Shown here one piece after another: positions 6,001 through 12,000 of a DNA stretch of 13,028 bases (positions are counted from its first letter, which is position 1; each line of letters opens with the position of its first letter). Position numbers: made by a program. This DNA comes from a virus (taxonomy: Duplodnaviria > Heunggongvirae > Uroviricota > Caudoviricetes), in IMG/VR virus record IMGVR_UViG_2734482780_000013, positions 1 to 13,028 of that record; one strand, 5' to 3'.

Positions 6001-9000
6001 GGCCTGGGAGACAGATCCAGGTAGCTCGTCATTAAAGCTCATACTGCTCTCGATGGCTGACAGAGCCGATGAATATAACCTCTGCTATCCGGAGATTGAA
6101 CATGACGGTATCAACAGAAGTTGACCACAACGAATACACAGGTAACGGTGTTACGACTTCATTCCCTTATACCTTTAGGATTTTCCAGGAATCTGATCTG
6201 GTAGTACAGGTGTTTGACCTTGATGAAAATATCGCTGTGCTGGCTCTTGATACTGATTACGCAGTCACTGGTGCGGGAGGGTACAACGGCGGTAATGTAA
6301 TTCTGTCGAAGGCGTTGGCTAACGGTTATCGGATTTCTATATCACGAGAGCTACCGGTTACACAGGAAACTGATCTGCGCAATCAGGGTAAGTTTTTTGC
6401 TGAGGTGCATGAGGATGCGTTTGATAAGCTAACGATGTTGATTCAGCAGGTTCGCAGTTTGTTTAGCCTTGCGCTGCGTAAGCCATCAAGCATCGCGAAC
6501 TGGTACGACGCGCTAAACAACTATATCCGTAATCTTAGAGACCCACGAGATCCACAGGATGCGGCAACAAAAAATTATGTTGACAGTGTCGCCTATTATG
6601 TCGACAACCTTTTCAAAAGGACGCTAAGAGTTCCTGAAAGTTATGTTGATCAGATACCATCAAATGAAGAGAGAGCGAATAAAATTCTTGCTTTTAATGA
6701 TGTAGGGAGACCAATTGCCGTTTTGCCAGAATCAGGCTCGGCTTCAGATGTTCTAATTGAGTTAGCAAACAATGGTGCAAAAATAACAGGATATAAAAAT
6801 AAGGGACCATTTGCGATTTTACAGACAGTAAAAGACAAATTAGATAGGATTTATTATGTAAGTGATTATGGTGTCTTACCAACAAATAGTGCCACCGTTA
6901 ACTCTACAAATTTGCAGAACATGCTGAACGATCTGTCTGGTAAGTCCACGATTACGAGAATTGTGTTTGCAGATCAGGGTACTATTTTTGTCAATGGGCC
7001 AATCATAGTCCCTAATAACACCGACATCGAAATTAAATCCGGCGTTACGGTTTCAGGCGCGTCTGGCAATCTGAGGCCGGTATTTGTAAGTGAGAAATGG
7101 GAATATGTTCTGTCAAACAGGACAGTCTCGGGAGGTTTTGCTTCTAACACATCCGATCTTGGTAACCGCTCAGATTATATTGGGATATGGGGAGGTGGGA
7201 CCGTTGACTACAACTATTCTACGGGAGGCACCTCGAATGGGATGGAAATGCATTGCATCTGCATTGCATCAGCAGTGCGGGTTAAATTAGGTGGTGGACT
7301 GGAAATTAAAGGTGCAAGAAAATATTCTTACCTTGTAGCCAACGTTCAATATCTTGATGCTCAAGGGCTTCGTTTTAATAACAACTCTGATGGACTTCAT
7401 CTACAGCCACCTATTGATTATGCCTACGTAAGGGATCTGTACGGTACGACTGGCGATGACATGTTTGCAATGACCGGAGGGGATTACCTTGCTTACGATT
7501 TAGGGTTGCGCGGAACGTTTAATCACATCGACGTTAAGGGCATTTATGGCATTAATTCTTTATGTGCAGTAAAGGTTGCAGGAAACAGCACAACACCTGT
7601 TCGCCACCTGAGCATAGATGGTGTTTATGGTAGCTACCAGCATAGTGTAATCAGGGTGTGGACAGATGGACCAAATCTGTCACAAACCAACGTGAAAACA
7701 CTGAATATCGACAATGTCGGTGGAATTGCTGGCGCTGGCTACAGAACCATTGAATTTAAAACAGTAGGGACTGGTACTGTTACCGTCGATAACGCTGTAA
7801 TCGGCGTTATCTCGGCTAACTACTCGGCAGCAGTTGTGCCTGTAGTGTCGGTAACCACTGGGACGGCTGGCTCATCAGCAGTTCGTGTCTACAATCTGGA
7901 ATGTCGGTGCCCTCGTGATGTCGCATATTTTCTGGAGGTAGGGGGTGATGGTGCTGGTGCCGACAATAGTCGCATAGACAATCTTAATGTTAATTTCGAT
8001 AAAACCTTACTTGCTACCAGTGTGTCGGACGCAGCCGGAGTTCGTATCACCCGTGGGCAGATAAACACCGTTATTGTTTCGGGGAATATTGATTTGGTTT
8101 CCGGGCAGGCGGTGATCAGAAAGTCTAGTGGTAAAGTAGAGAAAGTTATCTTCGACAAATTAACCCAATCTAATGGTTATAGCTTTATAAGTACTGGTGT
8201 TAACTACGACAATACCACTCCCTCGTTTGAGTTTATCGGTGGATTTTTCAACAACCCAGACAAATTAACAAGTCTGGTTAGCGGCTATTCTGTTGTTTGT
8301 GGTGGTAATGTTGTATCAAGTAAAACAGGTGAAGTTTTCACTACAACAACTGGCACTGTAAATATAAGTGGGCATATGCAGTATGGAAACTCCGCTATAC
8401 CATCCACACCTGTTTCAGGGGGCACTTGGGTGATTAAAGGGTTTGGTATTTTTGCGGATGTTGGCAACGCAACTGCAGTTAGAGGGAATCACTGTTACAA
8501 CACAAATACCAGCCTTGCGGGTGGGGTTGGCCCAGTTGTTGCGAATGGTTCAAGTTGGTTAAGTGTGGTTTAATCAATAACTGATGTGATTGGCACTATT
8601 GTTATATTTATTTATGTGTGATAATTTAAATATAAATATTTAAAATGGTGTCAATCATGCAGAATAGCATATATTTAGCAATATGGGTTTTTGGTTCTAT
8701 ATTATTTGTTTCTTTAATATTTTCCATGCCTTTATTCTCATTTATGGATAAAGGCGTGAAGCTGCATAGAAATATGCAATTAACAGGTGTAAGATATATA
8801 CTTGCATCAATGGTCGTCTTTGACCATATGGACTTTTTTTTGAATTTTACCATAAATAATAAATGGTGGTTCACATCATCATTTATGTACTATATAGGAA
8901 ATCTTGGGGTTTATTTTTTCTTCATGATTACTGCTTTTTTATTTTGGGGGAAAATAAGAGACTCAGAGCGTGTTGACTGGATTTCAATGTATAAGGGAAG

Positions 9001-12000
9001 GCTGTTTAGAATCTTGCCAATGGCTTGGTTGTCATCACTTTTGGCTATAGTTGTAATATTGTATTATACAGGGCTTCCATCTGATTTTATTCAGAAGTAT
9101 CAGAACTATTTGTATTGGTTTGACGGTGGGTTTACGAATATAAGACCAGATATAAACGGGATGATTAACTCAAGATATGTAACTGCTGGAGTTACATGGA
9201 CTCTTGTGTGGGAGTGGGGGTTTTATTTCATTCTTCCTTTGCTTTACTTATTTAGAGAAAAATCGTTAGAGTTCATCTCAGCCATTACTTTTTTATCCAT
9301 GTATTTTGTACCATCATTTTTCCCAGATGCCAAAGCAAACTTATGGGCGGCTTTTTGTTTTGGTATGTTGGTGAAAGAAATAACATTGCTGGTGAAAATA
9401 ACAAAATTGCAATCAGAAATTTTGTTGGTTGCATCAATATTAAGCATTATTATACTTTCACCAGGCACTCTTAGCACAAAGCTCATATTTGTTTCAGCGA
9501 TAGGTTTCTTTGCTGTATGCTCAGGTGCCGATCTATTTGGTCTATTTAGAACCAAGGGATTTATAAGGCTTGGAGAGGCTAGTTACAGTATATATCTACT
9601 TCAGGGGGTGATTTTTTATGTCGCTTTTAAAGTAATGAAAGAAAACAACCTTCCTATGAGTGGTGGTATTTTTTATCTTCAGCTAACTATTGTCTTTATA
9701 TTTCTTTGTGTTGTGTCATGTTTAACCTTCCATTTTTTTGAAAGGTATTTTATTAACATTGCAGCAAACAAACATAATTAATATGATGGCGCTCAATGCG
9801 CCATCTTTTTATTGTTATCCCTAAACCACCTCCTGGGGAGGTAGTCTTTTGCTTGATTAACTTTAATCCATATATGGTTTATTGTGTATGATAAACTCAC
9901 CAACTAAGGAGGGTCTTATGCACATTAAACGGTGGTTTTTATGTCAGCTCAGCTAACAGATGGGGCTTTAAATCAGTGGCTTAGTATGAGTTCTCTTGCT
10001 GCGGTTATCGTAGGCGTTCCGCCAGAGGTTGCGCTCGGTGCTTTGTCAGGAGCGGTGATTTTTGTTACCTCTGCTGTCGAGTATCCGATCCGCCGCCGGG
10101 TGCTCCTGTCTATTCTCAGCTTTCTTTGCGGCCTTCTCTTTTACAAACCAGCAGCATCGATTCTTATCGGCATAGCCAGCCTGATCCCTACCATCACACA
10201 GGACTCTTTCGAGAAAGGGATCGTCTTTTCTGCAGGAGCATTCGTATCGGCGATTGTCGCTGTACGTATTGGTATATGGCTCTACCATCGTTCAGATAAT
10301 CCACGTGAGTTAATTCCGGGGAGAAAAGACAATGGTAACTCATGAGCTTTTTTTGCTTATTGCCAATGCGATTATTTGTTCGGGAATAGCAATTCGCGTT
10401 GTCACATTCCGGCGTAATGGCTCTCAACACCGAAGATGGGGGGGCTGGCTTGCTTATTTCCTTATTGTTGCTGCGGCCAGTATTCCTGTTCGTGTCGTCT
10501 ATGCAATCTGGTTATGCACGCCAATGGCTGTGGATTTACCTGAGGTCATTATCAACGCTGTTATGCTTGCTGCTGTTATTAAAACACGCGGTAACGTTGT
10601 TCAGATTTTCAAAATATCGAGGTCTAAACATGGAGATTAAACAATTCCAGCGAGCTGCTGGTATCAGCGAGGCGCTGGCCGCACGCTGGTTCTTGCATAT
10701 AACTTCTGCGATGAAAGAGTTTGGTATCAGCAACCCCGAAGATCAGGCAATGTTTATTGCTATGGTCGGGCATGAGTCTGGAGGCTTCACCCGGTTGCAG
10801 GAGAATTTCAACTACAGCGTTACCGGGCTGGCCAACTTCGTTCGTGCTGGGCGTCTCACCCAAGGGCAGGCTAATGCATTGGGACGCCGTGCTGGTGAAC
10901 CACCATTGCCACTTGAGCGACAGCGCGCGATCGCAAATCTGGTGTATAGCAAACGCATGGGGAACAATGCTCCCGGTGATGGTTGGAATTACCGTGGGCG
11001 CGGACTTATCCAGATTACCGGTTTGAATAACTATCGTGACTGCGGAAACGGCCTGAAAGTGGACCTGCTGGAGAATCCTGAGCTGTTGACGCAAGACGAA
11101 TACGCGGCTCGTAGCGCGGCGTGGTTCTTCTCCAGCAAAGGCTGCATGAAGTATCCCGGCGATATTGCACGTGTAACTTTGATTATCAATGGTGGCAGGA
11201 ATGGCATCGACGACCGGCGCACGCGGTACGTCACTGCCAGTAAGGTGCTGGCGGCATGATCTGGGCATTCGTAAAAGCATACCGGAAACAGTTGATTATC
11301 ATGGCGGTGCTTGCTGTTCTGGTCATATCAGGAGTTGTTGCCTGGAATGTACACGGCAGTCGTCAGTACGACGCCGGGTATGCGCAGGCGAAAGAAGACC
11401 GCAAAACCGAAGATGAGAGAGTTCGTCATCACTACGAACAGGAGAAAGCGATCAATGAACGTGAAGCGCAGCAGAGGATCGACCAGGCGCGCAATGATGC
11501 TCTTGATGCTGCCGCTCGCGCTGGCCGGTTGCAGCAACAGCTCGTTGCCATCCGTGAGCAGCTCAGGCAGTATAACGCCATTGTCGGCGCTGGGACGTCA
11601 GCCGCAGACACCGGAGTTTTGCTTGCCGACGTGCTCAGTAAATCTCTCGAGAGAAACAGACAACTGGCAGAGTATGCTGACAGGGCTGTCGAAGCCGGAA
11701 GAGTCTGCGAAAAACAGTACGACACCCTGACCAGATAGCATGGCATTTTTCATGGTACTGATTTTCGGTGACGGTATATAAAACGGTACGGGAAAAATTT
11801 GGTTTTGGAAAAATGTTATCACTCAATTGGTTATGATTGTCGTAAATAATTGAGTGGGAATGATTTTAATCCCTGCACTATGAATGAACAAAACCCTCTG
11901 TTACTACAGAGGGTTTTTTATCTTCAAGAATCATAGGCTTGAAGTTACTAACATCGATTAATTAAACCAGCTGTCCGATTTGTTCTCTTCTGCTTTGCCC

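Follow-up and report, generated by a model that had tools for sequence, protein, structure and literature searches.

What does an AT-rich acyltransferase gene do directly behind the tailspike gene of a phage? The locus lies in IMG/VR virus record IMGVR_UViG_2734482780_000013, of which the whole 13,028-nt stretch analysed here is called the window. A first-pass annotation had proposed it as a candidate serotype-conversion gene of the acyltransferase-3 (AT3) family. We conclude, with a probability of roughly three in four, that its product is an active, stand-alone AT3 enzyme of the OacB type with 11 helices, serving in lysogenic conversion. The gene would thus be a fresh example of a well-known phage trick, the mechanism of which is not new.

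An intact AT3-only gene

The AT3 reading frame (8645-9781, + strand) is intact and spans 378 codons; the coding sequence favoured below, 8657-9781, specifies 374 aa, with 378 aa resulting if ATG 8645 is used. Residues are counted from 8645 throughout. The protein matches Pfam PF01757 (Acyl_transf_3) with an E-value of 3e-22 and 79.5 bits against a cut-off of 31, the alignment spanning residues 46-357 and profile positions 4-323 of 326, and it matches PHROG 3333, "O-acetyltransferase", with an E-value of 5e-37. These profile searches agree with the family assigned at first reading. The strong AT-richness reported for the gene also holds, its GC content being 0.333 compared with 0.440 for 3 kb of upstream and 0.495 for 3 kb of downstream sequence, as does its placement beside the tailspike gene (6102-8573), which ends 71-83 nt before it on the same strand (+).

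Pfam found no SGNH domain in the protein, which stops at residue 378, just past its last helix, and the fused AT3-SGNH class (OafA/OafB/GtrC) is thereby ruled out. No NCBIfam equivalog was matched, and a nucleotide search with the cassette (8574-9861) gave zero matches among 50,697 phage records. The only public name of the protein is "acyltransferase family protein [Escherichia coli]", as for WP_157921936.1, which falls with it in one 90%-identity cluster. The exact 374-aa sequence is public as entry P0122 on 62 contigs and the whole cluster is found on roughly 160, while the related subfamily extends well past the Enterobacterales to Burkholderiales, Acetobacteraceae and Acidobacteria.

Catalytic motifs and predicted fold

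The motifs R50-X10-H61 and R119-x-x-R122, together with Y194 and E366, are invariant in 30 homologues. R50 and H61 are exactly 10 residues apart, forming the R-X10-H motif, and the RxxR motif reads R119-L-F-R122, the counterparts of its two arginines in OacB being R116 and R119. Motifs of both types have been defined as essential in AT3 proteins (PMC9833829), where R-X10-H belongs to the first core helix and RxxR to the cytoplasmic face of core helix 3. Seven residues are critical in OacB (R47, H58, W71, F98, R116, R119 and S146), their mutation abolishing serotype conversion, and six of them are identical in the window protein (R50, H61, W74, F100, R119 and R122). The seventh, OacB S146, aligns to D147, which S146 of the window protein adjoins.

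The AlphaFold2 model (pLDDT 91.6, pTM 0.91) is all-helical, with helices across residues 44-374. The PDB held zero AT3 structures for comparison with the model; its best fold match was human HGSNAT, a member of the same superfamily (probability 0.91, TM 0.35).

The N-terminal extension and the start codon

Ahead of the AT3 core, nucleotides 8645-8773 (+) encode an extension made up of a transmembrane helix (aa 2-25), a short helix with an FSFxD motif (aa 29-35) and a basic loop, KGVKLHRN (aa 36-43). The transmembrane helix is modelled at pLDDT 97-98, its Kyte-Doolittle hydropathy peaks at 2.26, and the loop that follows has 3 K/R and 0 acidic residues. Across 30 homologues D35 never varies, and conservation is 90% or more at F26, F31 and R42; among related clusters, the best 150 of 1,550 mostly align from profile positions 1-15. 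Judged by these alignments, the extension is real and common to about 1,500 protein clusters. A hydrophobic extension before the R...H motif had been flagged as unusual if real, and this expectation is not borne out, given the same arrangement in OacB of phage Sf101 and in those clusters. OacB is predicted to have 11 helices and a periplasmic N-terminus (PMC8952252), and the window protein's N-terminus is likewise predicted to lie outside.

The extension also largely settles the choice among the four start codons left open at first reading (8645, 8657, 8744 and 8774). Because it is real and conserved, the start is placed at 8657 (or 8645); starts at 8744 and 8774 were rejected since F26, F31, D35 and R42 are encoded upstream of both and would be lost. 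ATG 8657 is favoured, with 8645 as the alternative: homologues begin at the position of M5, which is this ATG, 374-aa NCBI entries such as WP_157921936.1 fit it, and GGTG (8647-8650) lies 6 nt before it.

Comparison with characterised O-antigen acetylases

The closest characterised relative, with 29% identity over 344 aa (E 9e-36), is OacB of Shigella phage Sf101, which in S. flexneri carries out 3/4-O-acetylation of rhamnose III and 6-O-acetylation of GlcNAc. Like the window protein, OacB is AT3-only and has a predicted extra N-terminal helix, and its gene neighbours the tailspike gene of a temperate phage. OacB differs in being only 29% identical, in lacking the FSFxD motif (D35) of the window subfamily, and in belonging to a P22-like phage, where its gene is convergent with the tailspike gene and next to int.

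The Oac protein of phiV10 has been shown experimentally to acetylate the O157 O-antigen and so to block phiV10 infection. PhiV10 is also a Uetakevirus and carries its gene in the same slot between tailspike and lysis genes. However, phiV10 Oac has 338 aa and no N-terminal extension, is encoded on the opposite strand and accompanies a tailspike with an unrelated receptor-binding domain; it gave no blastp alignment with the window protein at E 1e-3 and is 16% identical to it in a multiple alignment. Orthology was therefore rejected, the genomic slot alone being common to the two. The AT3-SGNH acetylases (OafA/OafB, BTP1 GtrC, oac of Salmonella phages SPN1S/SPC32H) share with the window protein the AT3 catalytic motifs and the proposed biological role, but they carry a C-terminal 11th helix and a periplasmic SGNH domain, whereas the window protein is predicted to end after the tenth core helix and to have its extra helix at the N-terminus. 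Sf6 Oac, the classic AT3-only serotype-converting enzyme, confers Sf6 immunity by hindering the endorhamnosidase tailspike. It differs from the window protein in having, according to the literature, ten helices and a cytoplasmic N-terminus, and tblastn at E 1e-5 gave no hit to it.

Cassette boundaries

The promoter and terminator ascribed to the gene fared differently. The terminator is as clean as had been described: an intrinsic terminator at 9785-9815 (+) with a G+C-rich stem of 8 bp, 6 of them G-C, formed by GATGGCGC/GCGCCATC around a 5-nt loop (9785-9805) and followed by the T-run TTTTTATTGT. A second hairpin, ACCTCCTGGGGAGGT (9828-9842), with a T-rich tail occupies 9828-9851 (+). The fold of 9770-9860 scores z = -3.76, and 0 of 200 shuffles were as good. 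The second hairpin belongs to a stretch of about 40 nt (9806-9850) that recurs behind a different terminator on some 200 E. coli plasmids.

The extended -10 promoter at 8599-8625 (+) is present as a sequence, with TTGTTA at 8599-8604, a 15-nt spacer and TGtGATAAT at 8617-8625, yet it does not rise above chance, 13% of local shuffles scoring as well. A second extended -10, TGtTATATT, can be read at 8600-8608 (+). Only three extended -10 sites occur in all 13 kb of the window, and two of them fall inside the 71-nt tailspike-AT3 spacer. A consensus scan of 8400-10000 found 3 promoter-like sites versus 7.0 ± 2.5 in shuffles; it did not list the 8599-8625 site, because a 15-nt spacer is outside its range. 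The candidate is unchanged in 11 of 12 independent copies, in which the whole cassette is equally conserved. A promoter here is thus plausible, one that sequence alone cannot separate from chance in an AT-rich spacer.

No terminator was found between the tailspike and AT3 genes, and with both genes in the same direction transcription as a late gene is possible. Homologous AT3 cassettes are all AT-rich and all end in a hairpin. With its distinct composition, its own terminator and a slot whose contents vary among related phages, the gene is moron-like.

The tailspike, its slot and the O-antigen

The tailspike gene (6102-8573, +) encodes 823 aa (PHROG 1640, "tail protein", E 2e-147) in two parts. 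Residues 1 to ~230 form the Uetakevirus particle-binding domain and are 72-78% identical to the tailspikes of phiV10, epsilon15 and sister prophages; past ~230 aa, no similarity to these tailspikes was found. Residues 223-823, from about nt 6772, are a receptor-binding domain shared with P22-like prophages and 97.5% identical in amino acids to that of a P22-like prophage tailspike in E. coli FACU 2024. The nucleotide match stops exactly at the stop codon (8573). What follows the tailspike with this domain in FACU 2024 is a remnant AT3-SGNH acetylase gene (PF19040, E 5e-29), cut by an IS3 element.

Related phages carry a different acetyltransferase in the slot between tailspike and lysis genes, each with an unrelated receptor-binding domain. 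Four E. coli Uetakevirus (pro)phages have the N-terminal part of the tailspike in common and differ in both receptor-binding domain and AT3 protein, those of the others being 46% or 36% identical to the window protein or showing no detectable similarity, and in Salmonella Uetakeviruses AT3-SGNH O-antigen acetylase genes map just upstream of the lysis genes. All the close homologues examined are prophage genes, and with one exception they adjoin a tail spike or fibre gene; the exception, P0025, is beside an integrase at a contig end, where the record shows only the near side. In 52 IMG/VR loci of relatives, the downstream neighbour is convergent in 45, unlike the co-directional arrangement in the window; among those neighbours are 13 tail-fibre assembly genes, 4 Tail_spike_N tailspikes and several further genes with tail domains. 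The phiV10 slot, the swaps among sister prophages and the pairing of the same receptor-binding domain with another acetylase all strengthen the serotype-conversion reading.

The receptor-binding domain occurs in 2 of 5,426 complete E. coli genomes, in P22-like prophages at different loci. Both genomes are among only 6 of the 5,426 with one particular wzx-wzy pair, and they share one rare rhamnose/mannose O-antigen cluster, laid out rfbBDAC-wzx-wzy-4GT-manCB and found in some E. coli and E. fergusonii. The longest contig with the exact AT3 sequence measures 4,619,411 bp, the same figure as for the longest contig with a Wzy of the same 90% cluster; from this match, one genome appears to carry both this AT3 protein and the same Wzy type.

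A defective prophage

The window is a prophage resembling phiV10 and epsilon15, situated at the yfgI site of E. coli. It is defective, having lost about 26 kb with the genes for replication, packaging, head and tail. The deletion junction (6085-6090) has a 3-nt microhomology, CTA, and joins codon ~37 of a DnaT-like replication gene (phiV10 p43) to a point ~15 nt before the tailspike ATG. The same junction is present in NCBI assembly GCA_016114305.1 (99.986% identity), and none of 5,426 complete E. coli genomes has it. Between them, different assemblies show at least three distinct deletions of ~26 kb that take out genes for replication and morphogenesis, with left ends at 5814, 5860 and 6090 and right ends at 6085, 6086 and 6109, all of the latter no more than 25 nt from the tailspike start codon. 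The AT3 gene is identical across the deletion derivatives and intact in undeleted and deleted prophages alike.

Downstream, the phage backbone resumes at 9862 with 88.5% nucleotide identity to phiV10 and a lysis cassette (9862-11738, +). Gene calls from a near-identical locus (L002) place there a membrane protein/holin (9941-10345, +), a holin (10332-10640, +), a GH19 endolysin (+) and an Rz-like spanin (11256-11738, +), and the Pfam matches are Phage_holin_8, Glyco_hydro_19 and DUF2514. Given the deletion pattern and the unusual same-strand orientation, a host could have domesticated the tailspike-AT3-lysis module, for example to exclude phages through the acetyltransferase while keeping an O-antigen-specific spike; another example would be a hot spot giving rise to such mini-prophages again and again. 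That these genes are maintained as a selected unit in decaying prophages seems to us quite unlikely, the alternative being ordinary random decay.

Proposed function and alternatives

From the family, intact catalytic motifs, predicted fold, cassette anatomy and genomic associations described above, we infer the activity of the enzyme, its acceptor, its expression in the lysogen and an exclusion phenotype. In the AT3 family model, acetyl-CoA would pass from the cytoplasm into the transmembrane pore, held by R50, R119 and R122, and H61, with Y194 near the periplasmic face, would transfer the acetyl group to a sugar hydroxyl of O-antigen still on undecaprenyl pyrophosphate in the periplasm, without an SGNH partner domain. 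With the extra helix, the N-terminus would come to lie in the periplasm, the location also predicted for that of OacB. The acceptor is most likely the rare rhamnose/mannose O-antigen of the rfbBDAC-wzx-wzy-4GT-manCB cluster. Once acetylated, it would escape both binding and cleavage by the receptor-binding domain of the neighbouring tailspike, and the lysogen would display an altered O-epitope and resist superinfection by phages with that domain. Since the window prophage is defective, any present benefit would go to the host and not to a viable phage.

Neither the acceptor nor the acyl group of an AT3 protein can be predicted from its sequence. The enzyme might act on another envelope glycan (ECA, capsule, colanic acid, LPS core or periplasmic glucans) or use a non-acetyl donor, and the phenotype would then not be O-serotype conversion. 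AT3 proteins do modify many acceptors with several acyl groups (PMC9558356), and the missing equivalog match, the reach of the subfamily into Burkholderiales, Acetobacteraceae and Acidobacteria, and the targeting of capsules by some Uetakevirus tailspikes, such as endosialidase-type spikes, fit this reading. We nevertheless consider it unlikely: OacB works on O-antigen, the tailspike domain tracks one O-antigen gene cluster, and the other acetylase that accompanies this domain is of the O-antigen-acetylating AT3-SGNH group.

We regard as very unlikely a reading in which the gene belongs chiefly to the late transcript of the tailspike and works in the lytic phase, for example by altering O-antigen on the dying cell and so sparing progeny from loss on debris, instead of being a moron expressed in the lysogen. 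The shared orientation, the gap of only 71-83 nt, the position of the terminators after the AT3 gene and not after the tailspike gene, and a promoter that is only a candidate would all suit such a role. However, the replacement of old LPS by newly acetylated O-antigen would be expected to be slow on the time scale of a lytic cycle, in 45 of 52 related loci the gene is convergent with tail genes and therefore outside the late transcript there, and it is intact in at least three deletion derivatives without replication, packaging, head and tail genes. Least probable of all is a silent or non-functional passenger, for example silenced AT-rich foreign DNA, as the defective state of the prophage and the very low GC content of the gene might suggest; against this, the reading frame is intact with every catalytic motif present, the gene is kept in undeleted and deleted prophages, and its cluster is found on roughly 160 contigs, with the exact 374-aa sequence on 62.

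The acyltransferase-3 gene and its flanking signals

The product of the 378-codon ORF at 8645-9781 (plus strand) matches Pfam Acyl_transf_3 far above threshold and also matches PHROG 3333 'O-acetyltransferase', so the profile searches agree with the acyltransferase-3 (AT3) assignment made in the first-pass annotation. No PADLOC or NCBIfam model matches the protein, and the sole name carried by members of its cluster is 'acyltransferase family protein'. The exact 374-residue protein occurs on 62 contigs, and roughly 160 contigs carry a member of its cluster. The gene differs from that of L002, a near-identical intact locus, by two synonymous changes and one G270S substitution; identical-protein loci were chosen by identity and are therefore uninformative on selection.

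The gene was described as AT-rich relative to its neighbors and followed by an intrinsic terminator, and both features are borne out. Its GC content is 0.333, compared with 0.440 upstream and 0.495 downstream, and a clear terminator hairpin at 9785-9805 is followed by a T-run, with folding of this region far above that of shuffled sequences (z = -3.76) and a second hairpin located downstream at 9828-9842. The proposed extended -10 promoter fares less well. The sequence itself (TTGTTA, 15 nt, TGtGATAAT) is present at 8599-8625, and by our own scoring two of the window's three extended -10 elements fall inside the 71-nt spacer between the tailspike and AT3 genes, but shuffled local AT-rich sequence equals its score in 13% of shuffles, and the site is therefore a reasonable candidate promoter and no more. 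A consensus promoter scan did not list this site and found no excess of promoter-like sites in 8400-10000 (3 versus 7.0 ± 2.5 in shuffles).

In E. coli, copies of the ~40 nt past the terminator (window 9806-9850; plasmid copy L010 2501-2540; TTATTGTTATCCCTAAACCACCTCCTGGGGAGGT...) that are 91-98% identical occupy 211 sites in 197 genomes, 198 of the sites being plasmid-borne. One plasmid copy was inspected, and there too the stretch directly follows a terminator hairpin, a different one, and an IS3-family transposase lies ~140 nt downstream of it.

An OacB-type architecture with a conserved N-terminal helix

AT3 proteins are defined by an R-X10-H motif in the first core helix and an RxxR motif on the cytoplasmic face of helix 3 (PMC9833829). 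Both motifs, as well as Y194 and E366 (numbered from 8645), are present and invariant in an alignment of 30 relatives. Under the AT3 model, acetyl-CoA would enter from the cytoplasm and be held by three arginines, and acetyl transfer would occur at the periplasmic histidine. The PDB contains no solved AT3 structure, the best fold match being human HGSNAT of the same superfamily, and a BFVD fold search gave one significant match, an unnamed 637-residue protein.

Among 50,697 phage records, the closest protein is O-acetyltransferase B (OacB) of Shigella phage Sf101 (29% identity over 344 residues, E 9e-36). OacB is predicted to have 11 transmembrane segments, a periplasmic N-terminus and an AT3 domain that begins at residue 38, and its serotype conversion activity requires R47, H58, W71, F98, R116, R119 and S146 (PMC8952252). 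Six of these seven residues are identical in the AT3 protein (R50, H61, W74, F100, R119 and R122), whereas S146 aligns one position off.

The first-pass annotation left the start codon ambiguous among 8645, 8657, 8744 and 8774 and considered that a hydrophobic N-terminal extension would be unusual if real. A search of 5.8 billion proteins (E <= 1e-5) yielded 204 relatives, most of them 370-410 residues long and covering 92-98% of the query. In the alignment of 30 of these, a conserved FSFxD motif follows the hydrophobic N-terminus, D35 is invariant, conservation of F26, F31 and R42 is 90% or higher, and the homologs start at the position of M5, which corresponds to ATG 8657. An AlphaFold2 model built with this alignment (pLDDT 91.6, pTM 0.91) places one helix at residues 2-25 (pLDDT 97-98) and a short one at 29-35, ahead of the first core helix, which spans 44-71. 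Given this subfamily-wide conservation and the model of the extension, starts at 8744 and 8774 are excluded, as they would remove a conserved, confidently modeled helix along with F26, F31, D35 and R42. Between the two remaining codons, the homolog starts and the 374-residue NCBI entries, which begin at 8657, favor 8657 over 8645 as the probable start; GGTG is found 6 nt upstream of ATG 8657.

Nor is the extension unusual. When 1.84 billion cluster representatives were searched with the profile (E <= 1e-30), 1,550 clusters matched, and in nearly all of the top 150 the alignment begins at profile positions 1-15; OacB and about 1,500 clusters share the extension. The N-terminal segment is strongly hydrophobic and the loop that follows it, KGVKLHRN, contains three basic residues and none that is acidic, consistent with a first helix predicted to run from outside to inside. 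The 11-helix OacB-type layout is that of a large subfamily habitually tied to tail-fiber genes.

Tailspikes and AT3 partners vary together

Nucleotide searches of the phage collection and of 5,426 complete E. coli genomes gave no match to the cassette (8574-9861), and phiV10 homology resumes at 9862. Phage phiV10 carries its own oac in the slot between the tailspike and lysis genes, on the opposite strand, and this gene alters the O157 antigen and blocks phiV10 infection (PMC9558356, PMC11854483). Sequence comparison led us to reject orthology between phiV10 Oac and the AT3 protein. Two other E. coli prophages at the yfgI site hold AT3 relatives in the same slot (P0004, 46% identity; P0042, 36%), both antisense. 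Only the first ~230 residues are common to all four tailspikes, the receptor-binding parts being unrelated, and each of the four has a different AT3 partner.

More distant AT3 relatives adjoin Tail_spike_N tailspikes or tail fibers of other prophage types; another, P0025, adjoins an integrase at a contig end where one side is visible. AT3 relatives are encoded on 108 viral contigs in IMG/VR, and in 45 of the 52 IMG/VR loci with the N-terminal extension the downstream neighbor is convergent. These neighbors include 13 tail-fiber assembly proteins, 4 Tail_spike_N tailspikes and single matches to other tail domains. Every homologous gene examined is richer in AT than its flanks (GC 0.30-0.37) and has a hairpin at its end. 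More than 417 loci in species representatives belong to the subfamily, which is widespread among Proteobacteria and Acidobacteria.

The closest metagenomic relative (47% identity) is convergent with a tailspike that bears a SASA sialate-O-acetylesterase-type domain, and another neighbor has a GDSL esterase domain (L006 9156-11066, L020 6156-8066), a curious pairing of an acetyl-removing spike with an acetyl-adding enzyme.

The receptor-binding domain accompanies a rare O-antigen cluster

Comparison with phiV10 and the gene calls of L002 place the true tailspike start at 6102 (6102-8573, plus strand, 823 residues). The ATG at 6069 given in a mechanical ORF list (834 residues) was rejected; 6069-6101 runs into the deletion junction. 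Near the 3' end of the gene, 14 of the ~30 differences from L002 over 6.9 kb are clustered within 140 nt (8393-8531), which may reflect either a patch of recombination or a hypervariable tip.

The only complete E. coli genomes with a match to the receptor-binding part (nt 6772 to the stop codon) are FACU 2024 (NZ_CP147009.1) and PM7, in each of which a prophage carries it fused to a head-binding domain of the P22 type; the two prophages occupy different chromosomal sites. The FACU 2024 receptor-binding domain is 97.5% identical in amino acid sequence to that of the window. The convergent gene downstream of it (L099 7828-8619) is a fragment that matches 'SGNH domain fused to AT3' (E 5e-29), the SGNH half of an AT3-SGNH O-antigen acetylase cut by an IS3 element; its relatives include O-antigen acetylases from the Salmonella phages SPN1S, SPC32H and BTP1. 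The same receptor-binding domain is thus found with an O-antigen acetylase of another class. The subfamily HMM detected no AT3 remnant upstream of this fragment, and in PM7 the corresponding position is occupied by nothing but a transposase remnant and intS.

The O-antigen cluster of FACU 2024 (L181 12322-31159) reads rfbBDAC-wzx-wzy-three GT4-GT2-manC-manB. Its wzx-wzy pair is found in just 6 of the 5,426 complete E. coli genomes, PM7 among them, and both genomes with the tailspike domain have this cluster. Serogroups O62 and O68 were rejected for it because gene order and the sizes of Wzx and Wzy differ. Related Wzy proteins occur in E. fergusonii: the Wzy 90% cluster has an E. fergusonii member whose longest contig is 4,619,411 bp, which is also the length of the longest contig for the exact AT3 protein, an indirect link of the AT3 and a Wzy of the same 90% cluster to one genome. 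The exact AT3 protein is present on CP057238.1 (4,619,408 bp), in which the prophage is intact.

A candidate O-antigen O-acetyltransferase

The AT3 gene is best explained as a candidate OacB-type, AT3-only O-antigen O-acetyltransferase, which would act in lysogenic conversion and in superinfection exclusion against the specificity of the adjacent tailspike. The earlier proposal of a candidate serotype-conversion gene stands. The co-variation of AT3 and tailspike and the O-antigen evidence fit the O-antigen acetyltransferase reading better than they fit its rivals. A late-gene role, with expression by read-through from the tailspike gene, draws on the shared strand of the two genes and the lack of a terminator between them, but it is less consistent with both lines of evidence, and the same is true of an enzyme that acts on some other acceptor glycan and of a silent passenger.

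The cassette encodes an uncharacterized protein and reveals no new mechanism. Acetylation of the O-antigen by phage-borne enzymes alters serotype, the epitopes used in vaccines and in typing, and susceptibility to phages, and the cassette, which circulates in E. coli and E. fergusonii, is a probable, uncharacterized case of it. It also offers a concrete set of three elements that can be tested together, namely the tailspike domain, the acetyltransferase and a single rare rhamnose/mannose O-antigen cluster, and the habitual link of the OacB-type subfamily to tail-fiber genes helps to annotate prophage 'acyltransferase family proteins' and to predict phage-host range.

The cassette is retained in a deleted prophage

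The window comprises the right-hand portion of a phiV10/epsilon15-like (Uetakevirus) prophage and host DNA. Genes for an MT-A70 methylase, a DndB-like protein, a PerC-like activator, RecT, a YqaJ-type exonuclease and a CI-like repressor lie on the minus strand. On the plus strand are cro, a p42 homolog, the first ~37 codons of a DnaT-like replication gene, the tailspike gene and, after the AT3 gene, two holin-like genes, a GH19 endolysin gene and an Rz-like spanin gene, 3' of which are the E. coli host genes yfgI and yfgH. In 5,367 of 5,426 E. coli genomes the host flank has a match of at least 98.8% identity. No Rfam families or tRNAs were found in the window.

Window 1-6090 matches the phiV10 early region and window 6085 onward matches a region beginning ~15 nt upstream of the tailspike. 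The prophage lacks ~26 kb between these two segments, from the DnaT-like gene to the tailspike, comprising genes for replication, packaging, head and tail. An assembly chimera was rejected because microhomology at the junction (6085-6090) amounts to only 3 nt and the same junction occurs at 99.986% identity in an NCBI assembly, GCA_016114305.1 (L184). Intact versions of the prophage are found in SRR10253968 and one IMG genome, each with 99.5% identity to the window from 6085 on, and two more assemblies (L186 and L191) have other deletions, 5860/6086 and 5814/6109, the latter with a further deletion within the tailspike. The AT3 gene is retained in all of these deletion assemblies. The left ends of the three deletions vary (5814, 5860 and 6090), and the right ends (6085, 6086 and 6109) are all within 25 nt of the tailspike ATG, a clustering for which we have no explanation. 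YDC107_2 and similar ~18-kb 'phage' records were rejected as sharers of the deletion, their vegetative gene order being normal.

Prophage and host DNA meet at attR, between the spanin gene and yfgI (11739-11957), and an indel at about 11867 separates the window from L002. In some assemblies (L185, L186 and L188) a SMI1_KNR4 gene or an integrase replaces yfgI after the spanin gene. A second AT-rich insertion that phiV10 lacks (836-1939, minus strand; ~1.09 kb, GC 0.36-0.39) sits between the MT-A70 methylase and PerC-like activator genes. Its product is DndB/DGQHR-like (Pfam DndB, E 2e-46; PADLOC DndB, E 1.5e-37; phrog_7901), and the insertion may be a defense- or DNA-modification-related moron of the early-left operon.
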